IMG/VR virus record: IMGVR_UViG_3300029418_000119
Origin: a virus
DNA: 64,000 bases
Reading direction: 5' to 3' (one strand)
Shown here piece after piece: positions 7,736 to 32,104 of the stretch; position 1 is the stretch's first letter, and every line of letters begins with the position of its first letter. Below the pieces are notes generated by a model. The model was not told where the DNA came from and searched no databases. It saw only the letters and a list, made by a program, of their open reading frames with translations. A program made the position numbers and the translations under genes.

Positions 7736-7764
7736 TTGACTTCTGTAAAGGTATCCTGTATAAT
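7736..7764 (+). promoter_or_regulatory. consensus promoter TTGACT - 17 nt - TATAAT embedding the repeated 20-bp motif (7751-7770)
   Basis: ttgact tctgtaaaggtatcctg tataat; identical 20-mer gtatcctgtataatatagct recurs at 31956-31975. Confidence 0.7.
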
Positions 7765-7807
7765 ATAGCTATGGAACGGAGCTACACTATTATAGAGGAG
7801 AAAGACT

Positions 7808-8227
7808 ATGGACAACAATATTGACCCAAAGGTCGGAGAGGTTTGGTTGGTTGATCTATCCAATGCGACAGGTCATCAGCAGCGCGGTATTCGACCGTTC
7901 GTTGTGACGAGCAACAATAAGCGCAACTTCTTTAGTCCAACAATTAAAGGGAATCCGTTGTCTTCCAGAATATACAAGCGCTCTCCGGTTCATGTTCTAC
8001 TCTCAAAGGAAGATTGTGATTTCCTAGAGGTTGATAGTATCGTTCTATGTGAAGAGACTGATACACTTAACAAAGGACAGTTCATTAAAAAACTTGGTGT
8101 CTTGTCGGAGCGTCAGATGAATATGATCGCAATGGCAAGATGCAAGGATGAACCGTTTTTGCTTGCAGCATTCCTGAGCGGCGTACAACATACCATGGAA
8201 TTTCAGAATTTTGCCGCATTTGCTTGA
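7808..8227 (+). CDS. mazF: PemK/MazF-family endoribonuclease toxin
   Basis: GEVWLVDLSNATGHQQRGIRPFVVT closely matches the PemK/MazF N-terminal signature (GEIWLVSLDPTAGHEQQGTRPVLIV). Confidence 0.7.
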   Translation: MDNNIDPKVGEVWLVDLSNATGHQQRGIRPFVVTSNNKRNFFSPTIKGNPLSSRIYKRSPVHVLLSKEDCDFLEVDSIVLCEETDTLNKGQFIKKLGVLSERQMNMIAMARCKDEPFLLAAFLSGVQHTMEFQNFAAFA

Positions 8228-8280
8228 TTTTTTATAAGGTTTAATGGTACACTACATATAATAAGAAGGAGTGTGCCACT

Positions 8281-9207
8281 ATGCTTACTGAAGAAAAAAT
8301 CAAAGCTTTTGCCGAAAAGTATTCTGATAGAAGCGGTGAGTTTGTTGCATCGACGATGCGTCACGTCATGGATTACGAGGCCGAGCGTGGGTATGAGTTG
8401 TTTGACTTCACAAAAGATGATTTCGTAAAGATGTTTGCCAAATATAATTGGGTGAATTCGAGTCGTTCGTTTAAAAATGTGAAGTCAATAATCACAGGCT
8501 ACATCAAAAGTGAAAACGAAACAAGCATGTATGATCTGGCTGACTTTTCAGAGAGCGATGTAAGCGCAGATGATATGTACAATGACAGTTATTTTGCGTC
8601 GGTTGACGAATTTGTTGACTTCTTAAATAAGTACGAAGAGCCATATCAGATTCGTATGAACGTAATTGCTGTTTTGTACTGGATTGGTCTTACTTCCGAT
8701 GAGATTTCTAATCTAACAATTAACGATGTGGATTTTGAATCTAATACCGTTCTTGATAAGACTGATGTTGACGCAAGGTTAATGGATATTATCAAGCAAT
8801 GTTACGAGATGAAACAGTATGATGCCCCCAATAAGAGCGGTTATAGAACATTTTATGTCATGAATGGCGATTATATCCTACGCAAAACGAAGGATAAACC
8901 CGGTGTAAACAGTGATCCAAAGACGTCTATAATTTCAATTCATGTCTATTTTTCGAGGTTGAACGATATCCTCGAAAAAAGGCATCATTCAAAAACCTTA
9001 GATCAAAGATATTTAGCCAGAAATTGTGAGTATATCAAGGTTTATAACTACTGTAAAACTCATCCAAAATTTAATCTTGCAGAACTTAGTTTCGGAAATG
9101 GTAAAGGTCCTCTTGCGGACATTATCGGAAGAAAGTGCAGTAAAGTTGCCTATCTTAGTTTCCGGCAAGGATATAAAGGTTGGGTTGAATATTTCCATGA
9201 AAATTAA
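8281..9207 (+). CDS. hypothetical protein (weak integrase-N-terminal-like segment)
   Basis: 308-aa ORF; segment IAVLYWIGLTSDEISNLTINDVDF resembles recombinase folds but no catalytic RHRY residues. Confidence 0.35.
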   Translation: MLTEEKIKAFAEKYSDRSGEFVASTMRHVMDYEAERGYELFDFTKDDFVKMFAKYNWVNSSRSFKNVKSIITGYIKSENETSMYDLADFSESDVSADDMYNDSYFASVDEFVDFLNKYEEPYQIRMNVIAVLYWIGLTSDEISNLTINDVDFESNTVLDKTDVDARLMDIIKQCYEMKQYDAPNKSGYRTFYVMNGDYILRKTKDKPGVNSDPKTSIISIHVYFSRLNDILEKRHHSKTLDQRYLARNCEYIKVYNYCKTHPKFNLAELSFGNGKGPLADIIGRKCSKVAYLSFRQGYKGWVEYFHEN

Positions 9208-9211
9208 AAAC

Positions 9212-9237
9212 AGGGGGCTTCGGCCCCTTCATTTTAA
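9212..9237 (+). terminator. rho-independent terminator (GGGGGC-UUCG-GCCCC hairpin)
   Basis: agggggcttcggcccct stem with UUCG tetraloop followed by tcatttt. Confidence 0.5.
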
Positions 9238-9243
9238 CATGCT

Positions 9244-9263
9244 AACTATATAACACAGGATAC
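9244..9263 (+). promoter_or_regulatory. copy of repeated phage promoter motif (aactatataacacaggatac)
   Basis: Identical 20-mer at 32085-32104; 15 nt upstream of pnkp start. Confidence 0.55.
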
Positions 9264-9278
9264 CTATTAGAAAGGGAG

Positions 9279-11498
9279 ATGCAGATGAGAACACTTTTAC
9301 TGTTCCGTGGAGCACCCGGTTGCGGGAAGTCCACCTATATTAAAGAGCATAATCTTGAGCAGTACGTATTGAGTGTTGATACACTTCGCCTTATGTGCCA
9401 GAGCGCACAGGAAACACCTGATGGGCAGATGGAGATTTCTCAGCAGAATGATGATGTTGTATGGGAGATGCTTTTCAAACTGCTTGAGGTGCGGATGAGC
9501 CATGGCGAGTTTACTGTGATTGATGCAACGAATTCCAAGACGGTCGAAATGAATTGTTATAAGAATCTTGCAAAACAGTATCGTTATCGGATGTATGTTA
9601 TTGATATGACGGACCTTCCGATCGAGGAATGCAAACGAAGAAACGCTCAGAGAGAATGGCTAAAGCGAGTTCCTGAAGCGGCTATTGATAAGATGTACGC
9701 TCGGTTTGCTACTCAAAAAGTTCCTTCTGGCGTGACAGTTCTTCCTTCTACTACGGATGTGATGTCCGATTTGAACTACTGCCCGAATGACTTTAACCAG
9801 TGGAAAAAGATACATATCATCGGTGATATTCATGGCTGCTATACCTGCTTGAGTGAATACCTTGGTGAGATGAAGGACGACGAGCTTTATATCTTCGTTG
9901 GTGATTATCTCGATCGTGGCATCGAAAACGTTGAGGTATTCAAGTTCTTGTGTGATGTTGTAAATAACAACCGCAAGAATGTGATCCTTTTGGAAGGGAA
10001 CCACGAGCATTGGCTGAACAAGTGGGGGCGTGATAAACCGGTTCAAAGTGAAGAGTTTGCAAACTACACTCGTCCGCAGCTCTTTAAAGCCGGTATTGAC
10101 AAGAACACTGCTCGTAAGATCTATTCCAGAGTCGGCCAGTGTGTCTACTTTGAGTATGATGGTAAGCGGTATTTCGTAAGTCACGGTGGTCTGAGCTATC
10201 TTCCTTATTTTCTTCCGTTCGTGTCTGCGGATCAGATGATTAAAGGCGTAGGCCGCTATCCTGATATACTGACCGTGGCTGAGTCTTGGGAAAAGTCGAT
10301 GCCGGATAGCTATATTCAGATCTTCGGCCATCGAAATGTACAGGATGTTCCTATTGATATGGGTCATCGGTGCTACAATCTTGAAGGCAAAATCGAGTTT
10401 GGTGGATATCTTCGTTGTGTGGAGCTTGAACACGGTCAGCCTATCAAATGCGTAGAAACCAAGAATGATGTATTCCGAAAAGAGGAGCCAAAGACTGAAA
10501 CTGCCGTTGAAATGAAAACTGAGTTCGATAACGCAGAACTTGTTAGTAAGATGCGTCAAAGCAAATATGTGTTTGAGAAGCGATTCGGAGATATTTCTTC
10601 TTTCAACTTCTCTCGTGAAGCATTTTATAAGAAGCACTGGGATGAGGTTTCTACCAAAGCAAGAGGGTTGTTCATTAACACAAAGACGAATAAGATTGTA
10701 GCTCGAAGCTATGATAAGTTCTTTGCGGTTGATGAGCGGAATGAAACGAGAATTGGAAACCTACAGAACACTTTGAAGTTCCCGGTGACTGCATATCTAA
10801 AAGAGAACGGATTTCTTGGTATCATTTCGTATGATGCAGAACAGGATGGTCTGTTCATTGCAAGTAAATCCACTCCTGATGGGCCTTTTGCAGATATGTT
10901 CCGAAAGATTCTCATGGATACGACTTCTGATGAAGATCGTAAGAATCTGAAAGAAGTTGCAAAAGAGAATGGCTCCATCATCTTCGAGGTGATTGATCCT
11001 GTGAATGATGCACATATCATCGAATATAAGAAACCGCACATTGTTTTGCTGGATATTATTGCAAATGATATGAATTTCAGTGTAATGGATTATGATGATT
11101 TGAAGCGTGTAGCCGAGAAGTGTCATCTGCAGATTAAGGAGAAGGTTAAAACCTTTGAGAACTGGAGTGAATTCTATCCTTGGTACGAAGAAGTCATGAA
11201 CGAGAACTATCTGCATCATGGTTTTGAACACGTTGAAGGCTTTGTTTTGCGAGACAGCAATAATTTCATGTTTAAGCTGAAGCTTCCGTATTATAAGCAC
11301 TGGAAGTTCTTGCGTGGTGTCATGCAGAGCGTTCAAAAACGTGGCTATTATGAAAATACCGCAAAGTTGTTTACTGCCGAGGATAACCTGTTCTATGGTT
11401 GGATGCGTGAACAACGAGAGAAAGATCAAGAGTCTTTCTGCAAGAAGGGTATTATTCAGCTGCGGAATGAGTTCTACGCAAGTCAGCAGAAGAGCTAA
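9279..11498 (+). CDS. pnkp: polynucleotide kinase-phosphatase-ligase (Pnkp-like RNA repair enzyme)
   Basis: N-terminal P-loop FRGAPGCGKST; central calcineurin-like phosphoesterase motifs GDIHGC / GDYLDRG / GNHE; C-terminal nucleotidyltransferase-ligase-like motifs KARG, HVEGFVLRD, KLKLP. Confidence 0.65.
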   Translation: MQMRTLLLFRGAPGCGKSTYIKEHNLEQYVLSVDTLRLMCQSAQETPDGQMEISQQNDDVVWEMLFKLLEVRMSHGEFTVIDATNSKTVEMNCYKNLAKQYRYRMYVIDMTDLPIEECKRRNAQREWLKRVPEAAIDKMYARFATQKVPSGVTVLPSTTDVMSDLNYCPNDFNQWKKIHIIGDIHGCYTCLSEYLGEMKDDELYIFVGDYLDRGIENVEVFKFLCDVVNNNRKNVILLEGNHEHWLNKWGRDKPVQSEEFANYTRPQLFKAGIDKNTARKIYSRVGQCVYFEYDGKRYFVSHGGLSYLPYFLPFVSADQMIKGVGRYPDILTVAESWEKSMPDSYIQIFGHRNVQDVPIDMGHRCYNLEGKIEFGGYLRCVELEHGQPIKCVETKNDVFRKEEPKTETAVEMKTEFDNAELVSKMRQSKYVFEKRFGDISSFNFSREAFYKKHWDEVSTKARGLFINTKTNKIVARSYDKFFAVDERNETRIGNLQNTLKFPVTAYLKENGFLGIISYDAEQDGLFIASKSTPDGPFADMFRKILMDTTSDEDRKNLKEVAKENGSIIFEVIDPVNDAHIIEYKKPHIVLLDIIANDMNFSVMDYDDLKRVAEKCHLQIKEKVKTFENWSEFYPWYEEVMNENYLHHGFEHVEGFVLRDSNNFMFKLKLPYYKHWKFLRGVMQSVQKRGYYENTAKLFTAEDNLFYGWMREQREKDQESFCKKGIIQLRNEFYASQQKS

Positions 11499-11507
11499 AT
11501 TAAAAAA

Positions 11508-11537
11508 TAGACATTTTATCGTGATTTTCGTTAGAAT
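11508..11537 (+). promoter_or_regulatory. candidate promoter for the tRNA array (TAGACA - 18 nt - TAGAAT)
   Basis: tagacattttatcgtgattttcgttagaat; overlapping direct repeats TATCGTGAT. Confidence 0.4.
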
Positions 11538-11615
11538 AATTAACGAAATATCGTGATATTTCTTCCTCCGAAAATGCCCTGCGCGGGGCTGACAGCCGGG
11601 AAAGACCGGCAATAT

Positions 11616-11700
11616 GGGGATATGGTGAAATTGGCAGCCACGCTTGATTCAAACTCAAGTGTCGAAAGACGTATCGGTTCAAATCCGATTATCCCTACCA
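11616..11700 (+). tRNA. tRNA-Leu (anticodon CAA), CCA encoded
   Basis: Acceptor GGGGATA/TATCCCT, anticodon loop TTCAAAC, long variable arm, T-loop TTCAAAT. Confidence 0.75.
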
Positions 11701-11900
11701 TGAAGATCAGTTGTTCTAGCTCGTTCGGGGATTGGCCGTACATTGGCGACCGGAAAGACGTCATACCGGTAAAGGACGTCAAGCCAGACAAGAAGAGAAA
11801 TAAGGTGTAAGCCGACTAGCTATCGGATAAATACTCTTCGGTTCGCCAGAAAACTAGAATGTAAAACGAATGGTTGGCTGTTTCTGATCTTCTTTTATAT

Positions 11901-11983
11901 GCGCCCGTGGTGGAATCGCAGACACAGGAGACTTAAGATCTTCTGCCAGAGATGGCGTGCGGGTTCAAGTCCCGCCGGGCGCA
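11901..11983 (+). tRNA. tRNA-Leu (anticodon TAA)
   Basis: Acceptor GCGCCCG/CGGGCGC, anticodon loop CTTAAGA, long variable arm, T-loop TTCAAGT. Confidence 0.75.
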
Positions 11984-11990
11984 TTTATAT

Positions 11991-12066
11991 CTGGGCGTAG
12001 CGAAGTTGGCATCGCACCTGTTTTGGGAACAGGGGACCGCAAGTTCAAATCTTGTCGCTCAGACCA
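11991..12066 (+). tRNA. tRNA-Pro (anticodon TGG), CCA encoded
   Basis: Acceptor CTGGGCG/CGCTCAG (one GU), anticodon loop TTTGGGA, T-loop TTCAAAT. Confidence 0.75.
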
Positions 12067-12070
12067 ATTC

Positions 12071-12130
12071 CTATTATTCCCAGCTCCTTAGCAGTAAGGC
12101 AGTAGGATGCTTCTCCAGTAAGCTGGGTAT
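12071..12130 (+). repeat. about 57-nt hairpin element, copy 1 (CTATTATTCCCAGCTC ... CAGTAG ... GTAAGCTGGGT)
   Basis: Shares conserved ends and a central CAGTAG with a copy at 12337-12392; stem CCCAGCT/AGCTGGG. Confidence 0.4.
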
Positions 12131-12134
12131 ATGA

Positions 12135-12205
12135 TGCGCCATCGCCAAGCGGTAAGGCAGAGGACTTTGACTCCTCCATCACAGGTTCGACCCCTGTTGG
12201 CGCAA
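12135..12205 (+). tRNA. tRNA-Gln (anticodon TTG)
   Basis: Acceptor TGCGCCA/TGGCGCA, anticodon loop CTTTGAC, T-loop TTCGACC. Confidence 0.7.
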
Positions 12206-12210
12206 TTTAT

Positions 12211-12292
<82 letters not shown>

Positions 12293-12336
12293 CGGTCATG
12301 AATCGTTGTTGTTCATGGTTGAACTCCTTTGACCAC

Positions 12337-12392
12337 TATTATTCCCAGCTCGCCAGTGATGGTGCAGTAGTGCTTTGTAAGCTGGGTTTTCA
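12337..12392 (+). repeat. about 57-nt hairpin element, copy 2
   Basis: CTATTATTCCCAGCTC...CAGTAG...GTAAGCTGGGT; see copy 1. Confidence 0.4.
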
Positions 12393-12393
12393 T

Positions 12394-12468
12394 GCAGCGG
12401 TCGTACAACGGCTAGTACATCAGCCTTCCAAGCTGAGGATGAGGTTTCGACTACCTTTCGCTGCTCCA
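12394..12468 (+). tRNA. tRNA-Gly (anticodon TCC), CCA encoded
   Basis: Acceptor GCAGCGG/TCGCTGC, discriminator U, anticodon loop CTTCCAA, T-loop TTCGACT. Confidence 0.65.
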
Positions 12469-12649
12469 ATCTTGTATGGGTAGGATCTTTAGCGGTCAGA
12501 TCCGGCCGCGCCTGTGCAAGATACCACCCAGAAAGGGGCTAACGAAATTATCCATGTACGTTATTCTCGGCTCGCTCGAAAGAGTGCAGCGTGCCTTTGC
12601 AAGCCGAGCATCCCAGCCTAGTGATGCCAGTTGCTAGGTTGGTTCTTAT

Positions 12650-12725
12650 GCGACTGTAGTTCAATTGGCAGAGCGTCAGATTTCCAATCTGAATGTTGCG
12701 GGATCGTCCCCCGTCAGTCGCTCCA
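12650..12725 (+). tRNA. tRNA-Gly (anticodon TCC), second copy, CCA encoded
   Basis: Acceptor GCGACTG/CAGTCGC, discriminator U, anticodon loop TTTCCAA, T-loop ATCGTCC. Confidence 0.6.
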
Positions 12726-12952
12726 CACGCAGCCCCTTACGCTGCACCGGTTACTCAGAGCCGAAAGGAACCTATATGTTACGACATGGTTGCCAAGAGT
12801 GATCATATTGGAACGCGACGTAGCTTGGATAGTGAGAATTAAATTCTGAGGTATACGGCTGGATAGCTTAATGGTAAAAGCGCTCGGAAACACCGAGAGA
12901 TGAGGTTCGATTCCTCCGCTGGCATCGCGCCGACGAAAGTCGGCGTTTGCAT

Positions 12953-13029
12953 GGGATAGTAGCTCAGTTGGTCAGAGCTGGCGGCTCATAACCGCTTGGT
13001 CGGGAGTTCGAATCTCTCCTGTCCCACCA
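12953..13029 (+). tRNA. tRNA-Met or Ile2 (anticodon CAT), CCA encoded
   Basis: Acceptor GGGATAG/CTGTCCC, G1-C72 (elongator type), anticodon loop CTCATAA, T-loop TTCGAAT. Confidence 0.75.
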
Positions 13030-13134
13030 GCCCGATAGGGCGTACATAAAACCTGCTAGAACTTTTGTTTTATAGGCGACGAAATAACATGACGTTGATA
13101 CGTCTATTATTTTTTCGCTCATTTTCTGAGTTTT

Positions 13135-13154
13135 AGCTATATAATACAGGATAC
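13135..13154 (+). promoter_or_regulatory. copy of repeated phage promoter motif (agctatataatacaggatac)
   Basis: Followed by RBS AAAAGGAGG and ATG 13166 of the methyltransferase gene. Confidence 0.55.
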
Positions 13155-13165
13155 GAAAAGGAGGA

Positions 13166-14642
13166 ATGAAAACTGAAGCATTACGGAGATATTACACAAC
13201 TTCATGGGTGGCAGATTGAACCGGTTTCCTGTATCACAGGAGGCAGTCCATGCCAAGATTTGAGTCAGGCCGGTAAACGTGAAGGTTTGGCTGGTGAACG
13301 CTCTGGATTGTTCCTTGAAATGATTCGTGTGATTACAGAAATGAGGGAGGCCACTAATGGAGAATATCCAAAATTCGCAATCTGGGAAAATGTCAGAGGA
13401 GCTTTCAGCTCAAGCAAAGGTGAAGACTTCAGATGTGTGTTGGAAAGATTTGCACGCATTGTCGAGCCAGACGTTTCAATTCCTCGACCTTCAGGGAAGA
13501 ACGGAAAGTGGGCAAAATCTGGAGCGATTTCCGGTAATGGATGGTCTATTGCATGGAGATTGTTCGACGCTAAATACTGGGGAGTCGCCCAGCGTCGCCA
13601 GAGAATCGCGCTTGTCATGGATTTTGGAGGACAACGTGCCTCAGAAATTCTATTTGAGCGCACGAGCATGTCAGGGGATTCTTGTGAGAGCATCCCGGCG
13701 TGGAAAACCTTTGCCCGAACTCCTGAAGCAAGCGTTGCTGGATATGATCGAATGGTGGAATCCAGGAACTCTGTCACAGGTGGTGCAGAAAGTGAAGGAA
13801 CAAGAAGGTCTGGAAGAGAAGGAATTGGACGAGTATTGGAGTCAGACCATCGAGAGACTTCGACTCGATGCACAGAACCTGCAGCCTACACTCTAAAAAT
13901 CCGTTCTGGATGTGAAGGTGGCGGTAAAGGCGCTCTGGTTCAAACTGAATTGAGCGCAACGATTTCTACGTTACAAGACCAGACGCTGATTTGCTTGGCA
14001 GAAAATCCCTCTTTACATAATTTAAAACAAAAGATTTCGCCGGTGGTGTTTGAGAGCCACAGTCAAGACGCTCGATACACTCAGCTGAGTGATACAAGTC
14101 CGACTTGTACTGCTCAGTGGGGAACTGGTGGCAATAATATGCCACTGGTCATTGAGAAGAAAGCCTTTGCGATGCAACGCATTGGTGAATACAAGGAAAG
14201 TGAACAGGCTAGTACGATGAAATCTCGTGATTACAAGGACGCTACTGACCTGATTACAGAAAAAGAAACGAAGAATCTACGATGGATTGTTCGCCGTTTG
14301 ACTCCTTTGGAGGATGAACGGCTTCAGGGGTTCCCTGATGGATGGACAGATATCGGTGACTGGATTGATGAGAACGAAAAGAAGCATAAAACTTCTGACG
14401 CAGTTCGTTATAAGGCACTCGGCAATTCAATCGCATTACCGCAATGGTATTGGATTTTTCAGAAGATGAAACCGTATATCGGTGAGAATCCTACTCTTGG
14501 TAGCCTCTTCGATGGGATCGGCGGCTTTCCGTTAGTATTTCAAAGCACATATGGTGAAGGTACTGCCATTTGGGGGTCAGAAATTGATAGCTTTTGCGTT
14601 GCAGTAACTAAGAAGCATTTTCCAGAAAAGCAAAGAGGATAA
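13166..14642 (+). pseudogene. C5-cytosine DNA methyltransferase, circularly permuted motif order and frame-disrupted at homopolymers
   Basis: In-frame motifs in the order III (KHYGDITQL), IV (GGSPCQDLS), VI (ENVRGAF), VIII (QRRQRIALV), TRD, IX (RRLTPLEDERLQGFPDGW), X (YKALGNSIALP), then an internal Met followed by I (LFDGIGGF) and II (SEID), then a stop. ATG 13166 is out of frame by one base at an A4 run (13169-13172). A second +1 shift at a T4 run (13622-13625) brings a protein-like frame-1 segment (YLSARACQGILVRASRRGKPLP) into the gene, ending at a stop at 13894-13896. Confidence 0.6.
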
Positions 14643-14644
14643 AA

Positions 14645-14920
14645 ATGGGAGCTTTTATTGCAAGACAGCCTAACGGTTTGCTGTGTCGGTTTTCTTCGGT
14701 GGTCGATTGTGTCACCGATTACAACATGACCGAAGAAGAATATATCGAGATGTGTGCTGAAAAGGCACGAAAAGAAGCACGAGATGTTCTTGACCATTAT
14801 ATTAAGCCGTTTGAAATGGTTGACAGGTGTTTCTTCCCGAACAACATGACAATCGAAGAACACAAGCGGATTATGAAGGAAATGGAAAAGCCCGTTGACA
14901 AAGCAACTCATATTCCGTAA
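14645..14920 (+). CDS. hypothetical protein
   Basis: ORF immediately downstream of the methyltransferase stop. Confidence 0.35.
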   Translation: MGAFIARQPNGLLCRFSSVVDCVTDYNMTEEEYIEMCAEKARKEARDVLDHYIKPFEMVDRCFFPNNMTIEEHKRIMKEMEKPVDKATHIP

Positions 14921-14964
14921 TAAGAAAATCTCATAAAAGGCTAATTCAAATAAGAGGTGACACG

Positions 14965-15195
14965 ATGAACAGCAAAAGTCCTATCAATGCAACCATAGAC
15001 CCTGGTTCTTTGAGCCTTCCGGCAAGTCCTATCTTCCAGAAGGAAAAGAGTACATATCTTTGTCCGTTCTGTGTAACGAAGCTGGAGAAGCTTGAACCGA
15101 AATGTCCAGAGTGTCAACATAAAATTGATTGGGGTGTGTGGATGGATAAGAATGCAAAGCACAATTATGCATTTGCTGAAAGTGGTGTGTTATGA
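14965..15195 (+). CDS. zinc-ribbon protein, CxxC...CxxCxxxxDW family
   Basis: CPFCVTKLEKLEPKCPECQHKIDW. Confidence 0.4.
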   Translation: MNSKSPINATIDPGSLSLPASPIFQKEKSTYLCPFCVTKLEKLEPKCPECQHKIDWGVWMDKNAKHNYAFAESGVL

Positions 15196-15566
15196 AAGAT
15201 TGGATGCACGCAAAGAAAAAAGAGATTGAGAACATGACTTTTGACCAAGCGAAGGAAATTGTAGAGAAACAAATTCGTCTTGGTAAAGAAGGAGGCCAGT
15301 GGTGCCCTCGTGAGCATTTAACAAAGGCTCTCGAAATTATTCTTTCAAAAGCTGAACTTTATGAGTTTAGAACAGATTACAAAGAGCCTCTTCTCGATGA
15401 CGTTTATAAACGTTATGAGTGCCCGGTTTGTTATTACACACTATCAAATCTTGATAACTTCTGTCCACGTTGCGGACAATTACTTGATTGGCGATTTGTA
15501 AGGCATTATGAGAGAACGATTCGTCCCACGCTTGAAAGACTGCAGAATGGGGAGGTGCAGGGTTGA
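15192..15566 (+). CDS. zinc-ribbon protein, CxxC...CxxCGxxxDW family
   Basis: CPVCYY ... CPRCGQLLDW. Confidence 0.4.
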   Translation: MKDWMHAKKKEIENMTFDQAKEIVEKQIRLGKEGGQWCPREHLTKALEIILSKAELYEFRTDYKEPLLDDVYKRYECPVCYYTLSNLDNFCPRCGQLLDWRFVRHYERTIRPTLERLQNGEVQG

Positions 15567-15841
15567 ATATAGATTTCTTCCAACGGCGCAAGACACAGCT
15601 TGAAGATACGCTTCTTTTGAAAAATCAGGCCATCGATATGCTTGATTATCTAAAGATGCATTGTATCAACAGCGATCAGTATTGTGCCATTCGAGATTAC
15701 ATTGAAGAAGCTGCTAAGATTCTGGAGAGTGACCTCGAATACGCAAACAACAAGCTGCAGTCCGCATTCAGACCTAAGTATGGTCGGAACAACAGATTGA
15801 CTCGTGCTCAATCTAAGATGTTCCGTGATAGAGAATATTAA
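15563..15841 (+). CDS. hypothetical protein
   Basis: ORF translationally coupled to the preceding gene. Confidence 0.3.
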   Translation: MNIDFFQRRKTQLEDTLLLKNQAIDMLDYLKMHCINSDQYCAIRDYIEEAAKILESDLEYANNKLQSAFRPKYGRNNRLTRAQSKMFRDREY

Positions 15842-15858
15842 AAATGGGGTGATGCCGT

Positions 15859-16071: not shown

Positions 16072-16216
16072 CGGCGAGTGCCGTATGAAATATAAGCCAT
16101 CAATAAGCCAGACGGAGGATAATACATAAAATGAATAGTGCATGAATTGATTTAAGACGATAACAGGAAACATAAGTGATTATCAATGAGACAAAATTAC
16201 ATAAAGGAGACTTGAT

Positions 16217-17331: not shown

Positions 17332-17351
17332 AGCTAAGTAACACAGGATAC
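17332..17351 (+). promoter_or_regulatory. copy of repeated phage promoter motif (agctaagtaacacaggatac)
   Basis: Degenerate copy about 90 nt upstream of ORF 17441. Confidence 0.4.
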
Positions 17352-19295: not shown

Positions 19296-19712
19296 ATGGA
19301 TAATACAGTTCATGACGCTCAAAGATTGAAGGAGCTTCAAGCACTTCCTCTTGAGCGAAAGATTCAGATCACTCAAAATCGCATCCAAGAATGGTATATG
19401 CACTACGACGGTGGCGTGTATGTCAGTTTTTCTGGTGGTAAGGATTCTACTGTACTTGCTCATCTGACGAAACAGCTGTTTCCAGATGTTCCGCTTGTGT
19501 TCAGTAACACGGGGTTGGAATACTCGTCTATCCAGAAGTTTGCACGAGATGCGGATGCGGTTTTTGTTTATCCCAAGATGGGATTTAGTGATGTTGTCTC
19601 TACATATGGTTATCCTCTTATCTCTAAAGAAGTGGCAGAAGCGATTTATTACGCTAGACGAATCAGAAATAGCGGCGCAGCCACCATGAGAGAGAGAGAG
19701 AGAGAGAGTTAA
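19296..19712 (+). CDS. PAPS-reductase-like PP-loop protein, N-terminal part (ends inside the (GA)10 repeat)
   Basis: PP-loop VSFSGGKDS; ORF terminates right after the GA repeat. Confidence 0.65.
   Translation: MDNTVHDAQRLKELQALPLERKIQITQNRIQEWYMHYDGGVYVSFSGGKDSTVLAHLTKQLFPDVPLVFSNTGLEYSSIQKFARDADAVFVYPKMGFSDVVSTYGYPLISKEVAEAIYYARRIRNSGAATMRERERES
19688..19708 (+). repeat. (GA)10 dinucleotide repeat
   Basis: gagagagagagagagagagag seen directly in the sequence. Confidence 0.95.
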
Positions 19713-19753: not shown

Positions 19754-20518
19754 ATGAACAGTCCGGGAGGTGTCTTTAGCAACCCGTGGCTTTATGATAA
19801 AACAGGAGTATTTCAGGGAAATAGACGAACGATTCTACTTGGAAATGAACCGGGAGCTGAAATGCAAGCTGGAACGAAATCGATGTTCAACAAAGAGAAA
19901 TGGCTTCCAGCGACACAAGAACTTCCATTCGCAATTTCTCATTACTGTTGCTCAGTAATGAAGAAAAGTCCAATGAAGAAGTACGCAAGGGCAACTAAGC
20001 GGAAACCAATTATTGGAACTTTGACAGATGAAAGCCGTGTTCGCAAACAGGCGTGGATTCGACATGGGTGTAATGCCTTTGATAGCAAGTCGCCGTCTAG
20101 TCAGCCTATGAGTTTTTGGACTGAGCAAGATGTACTCGCTTTCATCAAACAGTCAGGAATTCAAATCGCTGATGTTTATGGCGATATCGTTCCCACGAGT
20201 GATAAGCCAGAAGCTCCACTGTGTTGTACTGGATGTGATCGCACCGGATGCACATTCTGCGGATTTGGAGCTCACAACAAAAATGATAACAGATTCTTGA
20301 CGCTTGCCGAACTTGATCCTAAGAAGTACGAGTACAGTATGAATGGTGGTCAGTGGGTGGATAACCCTGCGTATGATGCGATAGCACCTGAATACGACGG
20401 TGTATGGAAGAATTGGAACCCGAAGAAAATTTGGGTGCCCAGTAAGGAAGGTCTTGGCCTGAGAAAAGTTTTTGATATGTTCAATGAACTGTATCCAAAC
20501 AACAAAATTCAGTATTAA
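19754..20518 (+). CDS. PAPS-reductase-like protein, C-terminal part (its frame is open back through the GA repeat to 19673)
   Basis: GTLTDESRVRKQ and SFWTEQDVLAFIKQ resemble the C-terminal half of the PAPS reductase family; CCxxxKKxP and a CTGCDRTGCTFCGF cysteine cluster. Confidence 0.6.
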   Translation: MNSPGGVFSNPWLYDKTGVFQGNRRTILLGNEPGAEMQAGTKSMFNKEKWLPATQELPFAISHYCCSVMKKSPMKKYARATKRKPIIGTLTDESRVRKQAWIRHGCNAFDSKSPSSQPMSFWTEQDVLAFIKQSGIQIADVYGDIVPTSDKPEAPLCCTGCDRTGCTFCGFGAHNKNDNRFLTLAELDPKKYEYSMNGGQWVDNPAYDAIAPEYDGVWKNWNPKKIWVPSKEGLGLRKVFDMFNELYPNNKIQY

Positions 20519-24835: not shown

Positions 24836-24836
24836 T

Positions 24837-25184
24837 ATGGGAAATTGGAAACGTGCTATCGCCATCGACTTTGATGGCACTCTCTGTGAAAATAATTACC
24901 CTGATATCGGTGAGCCAAATTGGAATGTCATTTATCAAGCAATTCAGGAACAGAAACACGGTGCTGGTCTGATTCTCTGGACTTGCCGTGAAGGAAAGCT
25001 TTTGTATGATGCAATGGAGGCTTGCTTTGATTGGGGCATTCAGTTTGATGCAATCAATGAGAGTCTTCCTGAGTGGAAAGAGCATTTTGGCACTGCTCCT
25101 AGAAAGGTTGTAGCTGATGAATATTGGGATGATAAGGCTAAGGTTGTAAAAAATGGAGAGTTGATTGACAATGCTGATGCCTGA
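24837..25184 (+). CDS. HAD-like hydrolase (small)
   Basis: AIDFDGTL motif I of the HAD superfamily. Confidence 0.4.
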   Translation: MGNWKRAIAIDFDGTLCENNYPDIGEPNWNVIYQAIQEQKHGAGLILWTCREGKLLYDAMEACFDWGIQFDAINESLPEWKEHFGTAPRKVVADEYWDDKAKVVKNGELIDNADA

Positions 25185-25356
25185 ACAGTTTGAAGCAGAC
25201 GTTAAAGAATTTATCGCAGAATGCCAAAGCCATCCAGTGATAGATTTATCAAAAGATGATCCATGCGAAGGATGTCGCTTTGAGGACTTTTGCGATAGGT
25301 TTTATCCGGGCGATGGTAGCACATGGCATTGGCGAGTTTATGAGAGGGGTGAATGA
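25165..25356 (+). CDS. hypothetical protein
   Basis: Short ORF overlapping neighbours. Confidence 0.3.
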   Translation: MTMLMPEQFEADVKEFIAECQSHPVIDLSKDDPCEGCRFEDFCDRFYPGDGSTWHWRVYERGE

Positions 25357-26118
25357 ATGGTTTACATTACAGGCGATATTCATGGCGATTTTAATCGTCT
25401 CTTAGAGTTAAATAAATTTTGCATTAAACACAATCTTGGAAAGAATGATTGGATTATCTGTCTTGGTGATGTTGGTCTAAACTATTATGGTAAGGATAAC
25501 ATCAACGAATGGAGAGTTAAGACCATTGCTGCGGACATCCCTGCGAATTTATTCTGTATTCATGGAAATCACGAACGCCGCCCGTCTCGTAAGGATGGTT
25601 ATAGGACAAAGGAAATCAGTGGAGATATTTGTGGTAAGGTGTGGCATGATTCACATTATCCCAATCAGTATTTTGCTATTGATGGCGAAGTTTACCAGAT
25701 TCTTGCTGATAGGGAAATTCTGAACTGTCTTGTTTGCGGCGGAGCATATTCTGTAGATAAATATTATCGGTTGGAACGTGGATGGAACTGGTGGCCGGAC
25801 GAACAGCCTAATGAGAAGACTAAGAAAAAGATCTGGAATATTACACATGACCCTCAAATCGATGATATTGATGTTATGCTCACGCATACCTGTCCATTTC
25901 GGTTCATTCCAACTGAATTGTTTATCGGTGGTATTGATCAAAGCACAGTAGACCAGTCAACTGAAATATTCTTTGATAATATATACGAATGTTATCCTAA
26001 CGATTGTAAACCATTCTGGTACTTCGGCCATTTCCATGGCAACAAGTACACCGATGACTATGTGATGCTTTTCGACGATATTATTAAGTTTGGAGATAAG
26101 GTGAATACGAATGAGTGA
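25357..26118 (+). CDS. calcineurin-like metallophosphoesterase
   Basis: GDIHGD, GDVG, GNHE motifs. Confidence 0.65.
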   Translation: MVYITGDIHGDFNRLLELNKFCIKHNLGKNDWIICLGDVGLNYYGKDNINEWRVKTIAADIPANLFCIHGNHERRPSRKDGYRTKEISGDICGKVWHDSHYPNQYFAIDGEVYQILADREILNCLVCGGAYSVDKYYRLERGWNWWPDEQPNEKTKKKIWNITHDPQIDDIDVMLTHTCPFRFIPTELFIGGIDQSTVDQSTEIFFDNIYECYPNDCKPFWYFGHFHGNKYTDDYVMLFDDIIKFGDKVNTNE

Positions 26119-26353
26119 ATATCATGTGAGCTGTGGTATGTTTGGTATTTACGCAGGAACTGTTAAAAAGAATGGAACCGAATGGAAGGATAAAACTCGT
26201 GTCACGGATGAAGCTATCGAGGCAGTTCGTGATTGGCTTCTTTCTGAAGCTCAGTTCAACAATAGAACTTTTGGTGGATACACATGGACAACAAAGGACG
26301 GTAAGACTGTAACTTTGAGAGTGTCTATCGAAGATAAGGAGCAGACAGAATGA
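26111..26353 (+). CDS. hypothetical protein
   Basis: Short ORF with overlapping start. Confidence 0.3.
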   Translation: MSEYHVSCGMFGIYAGTVKKNGTEWKDKTRVTDEAIEAVRDWLLSEAQFNNRTFGGYTWTTKDGKTVTLRVSIEDKEQTE

Positions 26354-26384
26354 ATTTAAATAGTATGAAAGGTGGTGTTGCCTG

Positions 26385-29300
26385 ATGAGTAGCAGTTTAC
26401 ATACGCACTCATACTTTTAGCTTGCTCGATGGGTTCTCTTCTCCTGAAGAAAATCTAAAAAGAGCATCGGAACTTGGCTTGAAAGCTATTGCCATTACGG
26501 AACATGGTGAGGTGACAAGCTGGCCGTATTACTCAGAACTAAAAGACAAGTATCCTGACGTAAAGCTTCTTTATGGTATCGAGGCATATGAGTGCGAGGA
26601 TAGGGAAGTAAAGGACAAGAACAGTAAATACTGGCATCTGATCATCATCGCAAAGAATGAGGCTGGTCGTCAGACGGTTAATCGCTTATCTACACTCGGT
26701 CATCTTCATGGCTTTTATAGCCGTCCTCGTATCACAAAAGAGGATATCGCTAAGGAAGATACGAATAATTTGATTATCCTGTCTGCTTGTTTGGCGAGTA
26801 GACTGTCCAAAACGGATGATTATGACACTTGTGTCAAGCTAGTTCAAGAGTATAAGAGTTTATTCCCTCACTATTATCTTGAGGTTCAGGCTCATGCAAA
26901 TAGTGAACAAGCAAAATACAATCAGAAAATCATGCGGTTGGCAAACGACACTCATACAAAAGTAGTCGTCACAAACGATGTTCATGCTGCCACAAAAGAA
27001 GCTCTGTATTATCAAGACTACTTTCTGAGAATTGCTCATGATACAGAAACTGCCGCAGAAATCTACGAAGGATGCTACTTTATGTCTCGCAGGGAGCAAC
27101 ATGAAGTCCTTGACGGTCAGATTGGATATGATGCGGCAGAATGGTGTATCAACAATACCGATGAGATTGCTGACCTATGTGATTATGTGGATATGCCTTG
27201 GCACGAACCTGAACTTCCCAAAATCGAGATTCCTCCACAGTATTCCAACTCAGCAGCTTACTTAAAAGACCTTGTGAAAGAGGGATGGAAGAAACGCGGC
27301 ATTGACAAGTTTGATGTAGAAAAGCAGAAGATCTATCGTAAGCGTGTTGATGACGAGCTGTTTGTCATTGAGAAGAAAGACTTCTGTGATTATTTTTTGA
27401 TTCTGGTTGATTACATCAACTGGTGTAAGAAAAATGATGTCATTGTTGGCCCTGGTCGTGGTTCTGCCGCTGGTTCACTTGTATGTTACCTGATTGGCAT
27501 TACGCAACTTGATTCCATCAAATACGAGCTTGATTTCGGACGATTCCTTACCATTGAACGAAAAGACCTTCCCGACGTTGATGTAGATGTCAGTGATCGT
27601 GCCAAGGTTGTCGAGTATCTGACACGGAAGTACGGTGAAGATCGAGTAGTTCAGGTTATGAATATCGTGTACACCACTCCGGTCACTTCGATTCAGAATG
27701 TTGGCAAGGTGCTCGGTTTCCCGTATGCTGAGATTAGAAAAATCAGCGAGAAATTCGTTCAAAAGACATGGAAGGATTGTCTTGAAGCAAATCCAGAAGT
27801 GGCTGAGAATCCGAGATACAAAGAACTGCTTGATATTGCAGAGCACATCAATGGTCGCCCACGAGGGTATGGTATCCATGCTGGCGGTGTTATTGTCTGC
27901 CGACATCCTTATTATGAGTATATCGGTATCCGACACGGTGCCGATGGAGAGCACGTTATCTCTGTTGATAAGGTGATGGACGAGAAAATTGGACTTGTTA
28001 AGTTTGATATTCTTGGCGTTGCATCGCTTGTGGCTATTGATGAGGCAAAGCGTGAGGACAATATTCCAGACTGGGAAATTGACATTAACAATCCTGAGTT
28101 TGAAAATGACAAGGCATCCTATGATTTGATTTGTTCTGGCCGGACAGACAATCTATTCCAGATTGAGTCGTCTGGTATGAAGGATCTGGTTGCACAGCTT
28201 CAGCCGAGGTCGATTGAGGAGCTGTCAGCATTGATTGCTCTTTATCGTCCTGACGCAATGCCGTCTATTCCTACATACGTTGATTGCAAGTATCATCCAG
28301 AACACATTCATTATTTCCATCCTGATATGGAACCAATTTTCCGCAGCACCTATGGCGTGAACATCTATCAGGAACAGAGTATGAAGCTCACAAAGGTCTT
28401 TGGTGGCCGAAGCGATGCTGGTGCTGATAGAATGCGTAAGTGCTTAGCAAAGAAGAAACCTGAGAAGGTCAAGGAAGAGGTAGAACTTCTTCACGATGAA
28501 ATTCTTGCAAATGGATACGATAAAGCAACCGCCGAGTATATTTGTAACGAGTTGTCAACGAAGGGCGGCTACGGCTTCAACGCTAGTCATTCTCAAGCAT
28601 ACGCCGTCATCTGTCTTCAGACCGCATACTTGAAAGCCCATCATCCGCTTGCGTTCTTTAAGGCTATGCTGAACCTGAATAAAGCAAAGGTCGGTAAGGT
28701 CAATAAGATTATGGTGGACGCACGCAGCTTTGATATTCAGATTCTTCCTCCGAGTATCAATCGTTCCGGCATGGATTTTACTGTGTCAAATGGTAAAATC
28801 CTATTTGGCTTGTCTGCTATCGGTGGTATTGGCAATACACTTGCTGAGACTATCATTGCAGAACGAGATAGGAATGGAAAATTTAAGGGACTTGATGATT
28901 TCACGAGTCGTGTTCGTGCAACGAAAGCGCAGATCATTGCGTTGGTCAAATCCGGTGCGATTCCTACAAAAAACAAACGAATATTCTTGGAAAAGTACAT
29001 TGCCAGCGGTTTGGAACAATCTGAGTTTAAACCAGTCAGTACACTTCCTACCAAGGCAGTTTTGCTGAGTAAGTGGGATATTGATACAGAGCATTATAAG
29101 GTTGGTAAGAAGGTTGATAAAGAAACCGTCCTACGAATCTATAATGAAAAGCGCCGTGTCGTACATGAAACTGAAAAACTCAAGAAAAAGGAAGCGTACA
29201 TGGCCGAGCAGTCAGAGAAGTATTTGAAGGACGAGCAATTCTGGGAGTTCCAGACGTTGCAGACGTTTATTATCGATAAGAATCCGTTTGAAAAGGCATA

Positions 29301-29601
29301 CGAATACATTAAGGATTTCTCTGAGCTTGAAACTGGTGACTCCTGTGTACTGGTTGGTATTATCGCAAAGATTCAAAAGAAGAAAACAAAGACTGGTATG
29401 CAGTTTGCGTTTGTGAATCTGTATTCTGGCGATGGTATCATTGAGTTGACAGTATGGCCGAGAATCTTGTCAGATTATCAGGATTTGATTGTAAAGGGAA
29501 GTCAGGTAGCTGTGCTTGGAAAGAAGGAAGATGAATCACACGTTATTGCAAACGACTTCAAACCTTACAAGCAGTGGCTACATGATAGAGAGATAGCGTA
29601 A
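26385..29601 (+). CDS. dnaE: DNA polymerase III alpha subunit (PHP plus polymerase core), requires a +1 frame change at UUU-UAG (26415-26420)
   Basis: RBS AAAGGTGGTG then ATG 26385 gives MSSSLHTHSYF-stop. The +1 frame continues SLLDGFSSPEENLKRASELGLKAIAITEHGEV, which together match the PolIII alpha N-terminal PHP consensus (HLHVHSEYSLLDG). Later GPGRGSAAGSLVCYLIGIT signature. ORF-tool start 26422 is a TTG. Confidence 0.85.
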
Positions 29602-29613
29602 GAGGGTTATAAA

Positions 29614-31944
29614 GTGGCAGATAAGAAATTTAATGAAAATATGATTCGTTGCTACATCAGGATAAAACGAGTCTTTTATCCGAAAGATGGGAGGGAGGTG
29701 GAGCCCGGCGGCTTCGCCACTTTCTCTGCCGAGGTGGTAAAAGTCAAGCAGGGAAATCCTATCATGAGTCGATATAGTGACCTCCGACTGAAGGGCAATG
29801 TCCCTAGTCTTGATATGAATAAAACTTATTCGTTCTGTGGTGAGTATGTTCATCATGAAAAGTTTGGTGATCAGTACAAAATCATCTACATGAATGAGTT
29901 TCAAGAGATCACTGACCCGGAAGAACAAAAAAGCTTTCTCCGTTTTATTTTGACCGATCATCAGTTTGAGATGCTTTATGAAGCATTCGATAATCCGTAT
30001 GAAGTTATCAAGAATGGTGACATCAAGGCTCTTTGTACTATTAGCGGTATTACGGAAGGTCGAGCACAAAAGATCATTGACTCTTTTGAACGCAACATTG
30101 ATAACAGTGAAGCGTACACAAAACTGATTGAGTACGGTCTGACTCCCAGTGCTATTGAAAAGCTTGTTCGTCAGTATCACGGTGCAGACATTCTGGTAAA
30201 AAAGATTGAGGAGAATCCTTACGTCCTGATTGATGATGTGTATGGTATCGGCTGGAAAAAAGCTGACGCTATTGCTTTGAATATGGGCTTAAAGCACAAT
30301 TCGCAATTTAGAATCGAAGCTTACGTCATGCATTTTCTTGCCGCTCGTGCCGAAGAAGGTAACTCTATTATCCCGGCAAACCAGACAATCAATAGCTGTA
30401 TTAAGGAACTTGATTTGAACGAGGGTGATCAAGAAGTCATCAAAAGGGCACTTTTCCATTTACATGATGTCCGTGAAACGCTTTGGTGGAGTGATGACCG
30501 TCAGGAATTTGCTTTAACTAGAGTGTGGAATCTTGAAGATAAAATCGCAAAGGAAATCAAGCGACTGGCTGATGCACCTGTTGAGCCGATTGGTCGAAAC
30601 ATGGATGCTGCAATCAATGAAGCCGGGAATGCGCTTGGCATCGAGTATACTGAGGAGCAAAGAGATGCTATTAAAAAGGTATGCTCTAGCAACGTCTGTA
30701 TCTTAACAGGCTACGGCGGAACTGGTAAAAGTACCGTTGTCGCTGGTGTTTTAAAGGTTCTTCGTGGCAAGTCTTTCGCTCAGACTGCACTTTCTGGTCG
30801 TGCCGCAGCTCGTATGCAGGAGATTACTGGTCAGGATGGAAAGACCATTCACCGTCTTCTTGGCTACGACATCGAGAATGGTGGTTTCATCCATAACAAG
30901 GACAATCCTCTTGAAGAAGACATTATTATTCTGGATGAGACCTCTATGGTTGGAGCTCAGTTATTCTATGACTTGATTCAGGCAATCGAGACCGGCAAGC
31001 GATTCATCATGATTGGTGATGACGGCCAGCTTGAGAGTATTGGTATGTGTAACATCTTCAAGGATATGCTTGCATCTAAGGTTGTTCCTGTGGCTCGTTT
31101 GACTAAGATCCATCGTCAGGCAGCTAAGTCTGCAATTATCACGGAAAGCATTAAGGTTCGTAACGCTACGCAGTTGGTGCCTTATGGCTGGGCTGGTAGT
31201 GAGATTCGTGGTGAACTTCGTGATTTGGAGCTTGATATCTATAAAGACGCAAGTGAGTCATTCAACCACATCATCAATCAGTACCGTACCTTATATAATA
31301 AGGTAGGGAATGATAGTGCGAAGATTCAGATTGTACTTCCACAGAAGCTACGTGGCAGTATCTGCACATACGAAGTTAATAATGCTATTCAGGAAATTGT
31401 GAATCCGAGTCGTGGTCAAGCAGAAGCAAAGGTTACAATCTATGGTGATGGCAAGGATAGGGTGTATACTCTGCGTGAGGGCGATCAGGTTATTATCAAC
31501 AAGAATAACTATGAGCTTCACACATACAATCTCAAGACAAAGAAAAAGGAAGAGAAGTGTCCGGTGTTCAATGGAAACCGTGGCATTATCCGAAAGATTG
31601 AGAGTAGTTTTATTCTGGTTGATTTTGACCAGTGGGGCACGATCTTTATTCCACATTATTTTGGTGGGAATAACATCTGGGCAACGCTTGAACTTGCCTA
31701 TGCTCTGAGTTGTCATAAACTGCAGGGCAGTGAGGCTCCGTATGTGATTGTTGGCATGGACAACTCTGCGTACCTGATGTTGACGAGAGAATGGCTCTAT
31801 ACGGCCATCACTCGTGCCAAGAAGTATTGTGTGATTTGCGCCGAAACTCACGCTCTTGATCGGGCTGTAAAGACTTCGAGAGTGCCATATAAGCGGACGT
31901 TCTTGAAGGAATTTTTACGGAAAGAATTTTCAGAAAAGCATTGA
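29614..31944 (+). CDS. RecD-like SF1B DNA helicase
   Basis: Walker A GYGGTGKST, Walker B IILDETSMV, motif YALSCHKLQGSEAPYVIV; GTG start after AGAGGG RBS. Confidence 0.8.
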   Translation: MADKKFNENMIRCYIRIKRVFYPKDGREVEPGGFATFSAEVVKVKQGNPIMSRYSDLRLKGNVPSLDMNKTYSFCGEYVHHEKFGDQYKIIYMNEFQEITDPEEQKSFLRFILTDHQFEMLYEAFDNPYEVIKNGDIKALCTISGITEGRAQKIIDSFERNIDNSEAYTKLIEYGLTPSAIEKLVRQYHGADILVKKIEENPYVLIDDVYGIGWKKADAIALNMGLKHNSQFRIEAYVMHFLAARAEEGNSIIPANQTINSCIKELDLNEGDQEVIKRALFHLHDVRETLWWSDDRQEFALTRVWNLEDKIAKEIKRLADAPVEPIGRNMDAAINEAGNALGIEYTEEQRDAIKKVCSSNVCILTGYGGTGKSTVVAGVLKVLRGKSFAQTALSGRAAARMQEITGQDGKTIHRLLGYDIENGGFIHNKDNPLEEDIIILDETSMVGAQLFYDLIQAIETGKRFIMIGDDGQLESIGMCNIFKDMLASKVVPVARLTKIHRQAAKSAIITESIKVRNATQLVPYGWAGSEIRGELRDLELDIYKDASESFNHIINQYRTLYNKVGNDSAKIQIVLPQKLRGSICTYEVNNAIQEIVNPSRGQAEAKVTIYGDGKDRVYTLREGDQVIINKNNYELHTYNLKTKKKEEKCPVFNGNRGIIRKIESSFILVDFDQWGTIFIPHYFGGNNIWATLELAYALSCHKLQGSEAPYVIVGMDNSAYLMLTREWLYTAITRAKKYCVICAETHALDRAVKTSRVPYKRTFLKEFLRKEFSEKH

Positions 31945-31969
31945 CAATTATGTGCGTATCCTGTATAAT
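31941..31969 (+). promoter_or_regulatory. consensus promoter TTGACA - 17 nt - TATAAT embedding the repeated motif (31956-31975)
   Basis: ttgaca attatgtgcgtatcctg tataat; 20-mer identical to 7751-7770. Confidence 0.65.
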
Positions 31970-32015
31970 ATAGCTATAAAAAGTCTCCATCCCGGAGGCT
32001 TAAAATTCTCTCTTT

Positions 32016-32035
32016 AGCTATATAATGCAGGATAC
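32016..32035 (+). promoter_or_regulatory. copy of repeated phage promoter motif (agctatataatgcaggatac)
   Basis: Second of three motif copies in the 170-bp region upstream of the ligase gene. Confidence 0.5.
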
Positions 32036-32084
32036 GGGAAAGAAATGGCTTGCTCGTAACGACAAGCCTTTCTTTATTAGCTAC

Positions 32085-32104
32085 AACTATATAACACAGG
32101 ATAC
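32085..32104 (+). promoter_or_regulatory. copy of repeated phage promoter motif (aactatataacacaggatac)
   Basis: Identical to the 9244-9263 copy; 13 nt upstream of RBS AAGGAGG and ATG 32118. Confidence 0.55.

Follow-up and report, generated by a model that had tools for sequence, protein, structure and literature searches.

Integrase-fold repressors that act as monomers have, to our knowledge, been recognised only in 2023-2025 and only in SPbeta-like phages of Bacillus. In SPbeta, the master repressor is MrpR (YopR), for which affinity purification of chromatin followed by sequencing (ChAP-seq) yielded ten peaks, each located at a promoter with the 15-bp SPBRE element; the peaks include yonP (5' of yonO), aimR and yopM, which opens the operon closed by mrpR (PMC10516654, Kohm et al. 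2023). SroF of phage phi3T binds, in monomeric form, a non-palindromic box of 26 bp, wrapping around the DNA and contacting 24 of the 26 bp (bioRxiv 10.1101/2025.11.27.690993). The promoter used by YonO, the RNA polymerase of SPbeta, is located downstream of yonO and has yet to be defined in sequence (PMC5467207). Here we describe a 20-bp box, AGCTATATAATACAGGATAC, that recurs in a 64-kb stretch of viral DNA (IMG/VR record IMGVR_UViG_3300029418_000119), referred to as the window. Our preferred reading is that the box is the counterpart of SPBRE, serving as operator of an MrpR/SroF-type repressor in a family of SPbeta-like Faecalibacterium prophages not characterised before, and the protein that it serves is probably the prophage's master repressor, a 308-residue member of the MrpR/YopR/SroF family encoded beside it.

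A sequence-only reading of the window had reported the motif at seven positions in several variants, and a search with up to three mismatches returned precisely those seven, in the variants reported, and no others; 100 shuffled sequences gave no match (Table 1). In a position weight matrix (PWM) scan of the 64 kb, the seven boxes scored 29.8-34.8 bits and the next best site 10.5 bits. The two minus-strand boxes (7751 and 31956) are identical to each other, each reading AGCTATATTATACAGGATAC on the - strand, as are the two copies of AACTATATAACACAGGATAC. At 17332, the TATA part of the box has degenerated and the ACAGGATAC part is whole. Reading of the flanks placed all seven copies in intergenic DNA, each between the end of a gene and the ribosome-binding site of the next. 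The direct copies lie about 3-85 nt from the next ribosome-binding site (the sequence-only reading had given 13-100 nt, which is corrected here), and the stretch from the first to the last of the three copies 5' of the ligase gene is 149 bp, within the 170 bp previously noted. The repeated motif is a real, strongly non-random regulatory element.

Table 1. Boxes, promoters, terminator-like hairpins and principal genes of the window, with the YonO-like polymerase gene of a related contig (L012).
Feature	Position	Strand	Remarks
Sigma-A-type promoter TTGACT-17-TATAAT	7736-7764	+	11/12 consensus matches; precedes mazF-like + repressor operon
Box, inverted class	7751-7770	-	last 8 nt of spacer, -10 hexamer and 6 nt beyond
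PemK/MazF-like toxin gene	7808-8227	+	Pfam PemK_toxin, E 2e-19; first gene of boxed operon
Integrase-fold protein, MrpR/YopR/SroF family, 308 residues	8281-9207	+	proposed box-binding repressor
Terminator-like hairpin	9212-9228	+	closes repressor operon; just 5' of 9244 box
Box, direct class	9244-9263	+	between terminator and ribosome-binding site of pnkp/RNA-ligase + tRNA operon
Pnkp (kinase/phosphatase) + T4-type RNA ligase fusion	9285-11498	+	Pfam
Nine tRNA genes	11616-13026	+	Rfam; same boxed operon as Pnkp/RNA-ligase fusion
Terminator-like hairpin	13091-13104	+	after tRNA array; just 5' of 13135 box
Box, direct class, exact consensus	13135-13154	+	directly 5' of AAGGAGG ribosome-binding site, C5-methyltransferase region
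Box, direct class, AGCTAAGTAACACAGGATAC	17332-17351	+	90 nt 5' of Sak4-like gene / replication operon
Sigma-A-type promoter TTGACA-17-TATAAT	31941-31969	+	12/12 consensus matches
Box, inverted class	31956-31975	-	inside 31941 promoter
Box, direct class	32016-32035	+	about +35 to +54 of 31941-promoter transcript; 60 bp from inverted box
GC-rich terminator-like hairpin, A and T runs alongside	32047-32068	.	between direct boxes 32016 and 32085
Box, direct class	32085-32104	+	3 nt 5' of ligase ribosome-binding site; ligase start 32118
Tn916-type integrase	51966-53123	+	Pfam; prophage right end
YonO-like RNA polymerase gene, two-barrel type	L012:1340-4132	-	also L045, L047

The pattern CTATATWAYRCAGGATAC matched more than 115 stretches of IMG/VR contigs, nearly all of them 110-140 kb long, with the spacings of the window preserved (two copies separated by about 1,495 bp, and three with separations of 60 and 69 bp); in all, over 100 contigs carry the box. 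PWM scans of related loci gave 209-269 unique contexts, according to the number of loci fetched, and these boxes group into about 12 orthologous positions. Across the family, ACAGGATAC and AGCTA hardly vary, and positions 6-11 (the TATA part) are variable. In 596 Gb of representative genomes, the pattern gave just 55 single matches, which is the chance level, and none of them resembled the window, and so the box belongs to this phage family alone. An inverted-box promoter followed by a direct box 60-61 bp further on occurs at two places in the genome, and a divergent box pair 60 bp apart lies about 20 kb left of the window, where it marks a divergent control region.

To the right of this divergent pair, about 1.9 kb (L012:7125-8970) are devoid of open reading frames (ORFs) of at least 70 codons on the expected strand, and this stretch may contain small genes or a non-coding RNA. 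The aimX region of SPbeta-like phages holds small genes or a non-coding RNA.

The orientation of the copies was then used to distinguish a promoter from a binding site. Because an earlier ORF-based strand classifier left 147 of 209 sites unassigned, the coding strand of the family sites was set from the GC skew of the flanks, which is independent of promoter features. Among the 194 unique contexts oriented in this way, 68 were inverted (three orthologous positions) and 126 were direct. The best -35 hexamer at 16-18 bp matched 5-6 of 6 positions in 65 of the 68 inverted contexts, and at most 3 of 6 in 125 of the 126 direct ones. The same division was seen in the window, where the sigma-A arrangement of -35 and -10 hexamers at 16-18 bp is present at the two inverted copies but not at the five direct copies. 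These results bear out the sequence-only reading on both points, namely that the inverted copies are embedded in near-perfect sigma-A promoters and that the direct copies have no obvious -35 element. In the window, the box thus overlaps the promoter of the proposed repressor's own operon, and five of the seven boxes have no recognisable promoter.

The two classes also differed in the -10 region. In inverted contexts, the -10 hexamer on the coding strand was TATAAT, TATTAT or TATTCT, and motif position 11 was T in all 68 (equivalent to A at -11 on the coding strand). In direct contexts, the -10-like hexamer was TATAAC (52 contexts), TATAAT (38) or one of many degenerate forms, with C at position 11, which would be the critical -7 T, in 69 of 126. 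At the position corresponding to 17332, relatives carried AGTAAC, TATTAA or TGTAAT with ACAGGATAC unchanged. The invariant ACAGGATAC lies 5' of the -10 in one orientation class and 3' of it in the other, and the box was equally conserved in both orientations, also where it is not transcribed; the same box positions were conserved in both orientations although all window genes are on the + strand. A conserved half on opposite sides of the -10, together with equal conservation, agrees with a DNA site that is bound by protein and not with a directional promoter or an RNA element.

The 7736 promoter leads into the mazF-like gene and the 308-codon ORF at 8281-9207. Close homologues of the ORF product bear the precomputed Pfam assignment PF22823, and a scan of SPbeta YopR identified PF22823 as MrpR_C_cat. 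An exhaustive profile search among representatives recovered 76 remote homologues, and a 41-sequence alignment that included remote homologues (A2) was used for the profile, hhalign and final AlphaFold2 (AF2) analyses. The 41-sequence profile matched the YopR/MrpR sequences of the PDB over their full length (E 1.4e-19), hhalign aligned it to YopR with a probability of 98.5% (E 2.5e-15), and 28 of the 41 members matched Pfam MrpR_N_CB. The protein and YopR are only about 14% identical. With a shallow alignment, the first AF2 model had reached a predicted local distance difference test score (pLDDT) of 59.7; with the 41-sequence alignment, the value was 89.4. The seven best PDB matches of the latter model were SroF-DNA, SroF-Sar, YopR and MrpR entries (E 3e-8 to 3e-6), headed by phi3T SroF bound to DNA (E 3.3e-8, TM-score 0.60), and genuine recombinases appeared in the same search only from E about 1e-3. 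Catalytic Arg I (R225 of Tn1549 Int) aligned with Thr138, a position at which at least 90% of close homologues also have Thr; the active site is degenerate, as judged at the Arg I position. Neither a sigma factor nor a helix-turn-helix (HTH) regulator was found among the 40 other scanned ORFs of the window.

Directly 5' of the repressor operon, a near-consensus promoter without a box (TTGACG-16-TATAAT, 7320-7347) precedes an ORF of 108 codons (7390-7716). Its product had no Pfam match; by position, it is a candidate antirepressor or other switch component.

The locus was then compared with the Bacillus systems. Both SPbeta and this phage are temperate, about 135 kb long, and equipped with a YonO-type RNA polymerase and an integrase-fold repressor whose active site is degenerate. 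Each has an asymmetric, AT-rich intergenic box in about 10-12 copies, located at the spacer and -10 or at a ribosome-binding site, and found at the repressor's own operon and 5' of the yonO operon. SPBRE copies recovered from the SPbeta record lay over the spacer and -10 of TAGACA-17-TATAAT promoters or abutted ribosome-binding sites. SroF (PDB 9rd5, 9rgl) was the best structural match of the window protein, and it reads a long asymmetric box as a monomer. The box sequences, on the other hand, are unrelated (AAAAATATGTATATAAT in SPbeta, AGCTATATAATACAGGATAC here), as expected if repressor clades differ in box specificity, and the core of the present box contains GC (CAGGATAC) whereas the phi3T box has A-tracts. 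The repressor gene is co-transcribed here with a MazF-like gene, whereas that of SPbeta ends a yopMNOPQR-type operon, and the host is Faecalibacterium (Clostridia) instead of Bacillus. No arbitrium genes were identified here, unlike in phi3T. The use of both orientations, each with its distinct context, is a new feature.

Distant relatives provided a further line of evidence. Remote homologues (24-28% identical) occur in the same module, with PemK-like, MrpR-like, pnkp/RNA ligase or YorF, AAA_24, YorH, DnaB and DnaE genes, and the pairing of PemK/MazF-like and MrpR-like genes was retained at this level of repressor identity in loci L253, L255, L257, L259 and L260. In one relative (37% identical), the orthologous gap between terminator and pnkp had no ACAGGATAC box. 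For each locus, the promoter region of the module was compared with the region after its terminator as a test of covariation. In the window, this recovered the box itself (inverted, 14/16 positions, p ~0). Inverted elements were shared at 13/16 positions in L255 (TACTAACAAA..., p ~0.045), L253 (TATAYTAACAA..., p ~0.06) and L257 (TTACCWACAYATAWAC, p ~0.04), and a direct element at 14/16 in L259 (ATARGCACACRAACAC, p ~0.005). Four of the six distant loci thus shared an element of 13-14/16, with a sequence that differs from lineage to lineage. A rough Fisher combination, with each p doubled for the two orientations, gave an overall p of about 0.02, which suggests a common layout with a box particular to each repressor clade. 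Generic repeat finding in the distant loci was uninformative, a related-locus search based on the close-family alignment found no relative less than 81% identical, and so none usable for covariation, and a search with the remote homologue P0083 found nothing in IMG/VR.

From the sites, their conservation, their overlap with promoters, the protein family and the genomic architecture, we infer the following mode of action. The operator would be an asymmetric element of about 20-21 bp, (T)ARCTATATWAYACAGGATAC, and one repressor monomer would clamp one box and read most of its bases, by analogy with SroF. A monomeric clamp would account for a long, non-palindromic box that is usable either way round. 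The inverted boxes cover about -21 to -2 of strong sigma-A promoters, and repressor bound there would occlude the -10 and spacer; as the 7736 promoter belongs to the repressor's own operon, negative autoregulation would follow. The direct boxes lie in the transcribed leader, after a terminator or a transcription start and 5' of a ribosome-binding site, where the clamp may act as a roadblock. Such roadblocks would insulate the pnkp/tRNA, methylase, replication, ligase/nucleotide metabolism and yonO-like operons from read-through; the yonO-like RNA polymerase gene, outside the window, would be among those held shut. Removal of the repressor upon induction would then open all boxed operons together.

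Several observations weigh against this assignment. Protein and box are linked by homology, adjacency and architecture, and the homology to YopR is transitive, being established through remote homologues. The single ORF product scored below threshold against Pfam MrpR_N_CB (E 6e-4) and gave no significant YopR match against the PDB by phmmer; its close-family profile did not reach YopR in the PDB, the close family was not significant against YopR by hhalign, and tblastn of the ORF product against phages offered no usable route to MrpR. The box showed no extended similarity to the SPBRE consensus or the published phi3T box, and all eight located SPBRE copies of SPbeta face the downstream gene whereas about one third of the present boxes are inverted. 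The position of five of the seven boxes away from recognisable promoters makes simple promoter occlusion insufficient for the direct copies. The covariation evidence per locus is weak (p 0.005-0.06), and L258 and L260 showed no significant shared element between the promoter and post-terminator regions. For the Sar antirepressor and LexA box of phi3T, no counterpart was found in the window: no Sar-like antirepressor was identified in its approximately 53 kb of the approximately 135-kb phage, and no LexA-type box (GAAC-N4-GTTC) lay near the mazF-like/repressor module or the boxes. Finally, other regulators may lie in the approximately 80 kb outside the window.

The main alternative, close to the proposal of the sequence-only reading, takes the direct copies as phage promoters without a -35, fired by a box-bound factor (an activator, a sigma-like factor or a YonO-like RNA polymerase), so that binding at the inverted copies shuts off the overlapping early sigma-A promoters in an early-to-middle switch. 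It is unlikely, although the direct boxes contain a TATAAY hexamer and stand just after terminator hairpins and just before ribosome-binding sites, where an operon needs a promoter. T7-type 23-bp promoters are likewise conserved, phage-specific motifs of about 20 bp before operons, often just after terminators. The family also has a YonO-like polymerase: IMG/VR relatives encode a 930-residue homologue, 23% identical to SPbeta YonO (tblastn E 1e-22, Pfam RdRP), which places YonO-like transcription in phages of gut Clostridia, and the promoter specificity of such enzymes is undefined even in SPbeta. Promoters of T7-type phage polymerases, however, are strictly co-oriented with transcription, unlike the present box, which is inverted in two of the seven window copies and in 68 of the 194 family contexts. 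The -10-like part is the least conserved part of the direct boxes, frequently with C at -7, and at 17332 the hexamer decays in relatives while ACAGGATAC is kept. The yonO-like gene itself has a box directly 5' of it, but the 5.8 kb downstream (a presumptive late operon), which is where SPbeta has its YonO promoter, contain none; on this placement, a phage-polymerase promoter was rejected as a general explanation. The boxed genes are of early type (replication, repair and nucleotide metabolism), the 40 other ORFs scanned included neither a sigma factor nor an activator, and at the divergent locus the direct box occupies about +4 to +23 of a TTGAAC-17-TGgTATAAT promoter, an operator position. 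Of the phage-specific promoter with a built-in operator that had been proposed, the phage-specific regulatory element and the operator are thus retained, and the motif itself as promoter is not.

It is also improbable, in our view, that the box is the operator of a different protein, be it a host factor or a regulator that the phage encodes beyond the window, with other targets for the MrpR-like protein. The approximately 80 kb of phage beyond the window leave space for such a regulator, and HTH genes occur near the module in some distant relatives. Yet a 20-bp non-palindromic site is ill-suited to the usual dimeric HTH repressors and suits a monomeric integrase-fold clamp, the box is found on both sides of the MrpR-like operon in this family, the flanking element changes together with the MrpR-like protein in distant relatives, and no LexA-type palindrome lies near the boxes.

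A variant with a single clamp protein and two opposite outputs, in which the inverted box serves repression and the direct box is a positive, promoter-defining element, appears quite improbable. The direct box would then recruit host RNA polymerase or the YonO-like polymerase to sites without a -35 after terminators. If this were true, a pseudo-recombinase would switch transcription from early to middle, and no YonO-type promoter element would have been defined before this box.

Two further readings are very improbable. Asymmetric repeats that lie both ways round, with an inverted pair bracketing a recombinase-like gene, recall Rci/sfx shufflons and could be sites of a tyrosine recombinase that inverts the 1.5-kb 7751/9244 segment; this was rejected as a general explanation on colinearity, as 80 of 80 related contigs were colinear over the upstream flank and interior, and 59 of the 60 contigs with a recovered downstream flank were colinear there too, and in addition the protein has Thr at catalytic Arg I, its nearest structures are non-recombining repressors, and recombination between direct copies would remove essential genes. 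An RNA role (a leader or processing element, or an inverted pair forming the arms of a double-stranded stem cut by RNase III) would suit direct copies in 5' leaders and the 31956/32016 pair, which could make a 20-bp stem in a read-through transcript, but it was likewise rejected, since Rfam found nothing at the boxes (only the nine tRNAs in the window), the inverted copies are equally conserved yet lie mostly 5' of the start of their own promoter and would be antisense in RNA, and most copies lack a partner close by.

The window contains the right-hand approximately 53 kb of an approximately 135-kb SPbeta-like prophage of Faecalibacterium. Beyond the integrase, GC content changes from about 40-42% to about 56%, followed by groEL (53782-55416), whose product is 90-94% identical to named Candidatus Faecalibacterium sequences; the integrase, the GC jump and the GroEL identity therefore place the window at the right end of a Faecalibacterium prophage. 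No close relative was found among isolated phages by megablast, and the nearest matches of DnaE, from Alicyclobacillus and Brevibacillus phages, share only about 34% identity with it. Pfam identified a C5 methylase, a Sak4-like AAA_24 protein, DnaE, RecD2, an ATP-dependent ligase, ThyX, NrdD and FolD in the window. In the host flank, an Eco57I-like N6 methylase gene (58111-60147) is followed by that of a 1,102-residue T5orf172/MUG113 + ResIII helicase protein (to 63455); these genes are probably a restriction or defence system beside the prophage.

Some neighbouring genes share a theme of RNA damage and repair: the Pnkp/RNA-ligase fusion with the tRNAs, an RlaP-family nucleotidyltransferase (5862-6614) and the MazF-like endoribonuclease. 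The lysis-lysogeny switch of SPbeta and phi3T works through host MazF; here the phage has a MazF-like gene of its own, adjoining the repressor gene, and no obvious antitoxin was seen. A second, shorter tyrosine-recombinase-like ORF (1027-1848, 273 residues, Pfam Phage_integrase E 2e-15) lies in the early region and has a counterpart in the distant relative L255 (1367-2182); SPbeta has YopP near YopR. The C5 cytosine methylase ORF (13155-14642 region) has a TTG start at 13260 and matches Pfam only from profile position 74, and the region of the S-adenosylmethionine-binding motif I seems to be missing. The AAGGAGG after the 13135 box leads to a 17-codon ORF ending at 13218-13220, and the start region of the methylase could represent a frameshift, an unusual start or a split gene. 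In the replication operon, a 3'-phosphoadenosine-5'-phosphosulfate (PAPS)-reductase-like domain is split over ORFs 19296-19712 and 19754-20518, which could be a two-subunit arrangement or a disrupted gene.

If the box is the operator of the MrpR-like protein, the system of monomeric integrase-fold repressors would extend to a widespread family of approximately 135-kb prophages of Faecalibacterium, an abundant human gut bacterium, and the family would be supplied with a sharply defined operator and a map of its early operons. The conserved module of MazF-like toxin and repressor would echo the MazF link of the arbitrium switch. The split between inverted boxes in promoters and direct boxes in leaders, undescribed for SPbeta, would offer a natural test of orientation-dependent blocking of elongating RNA polymerase.

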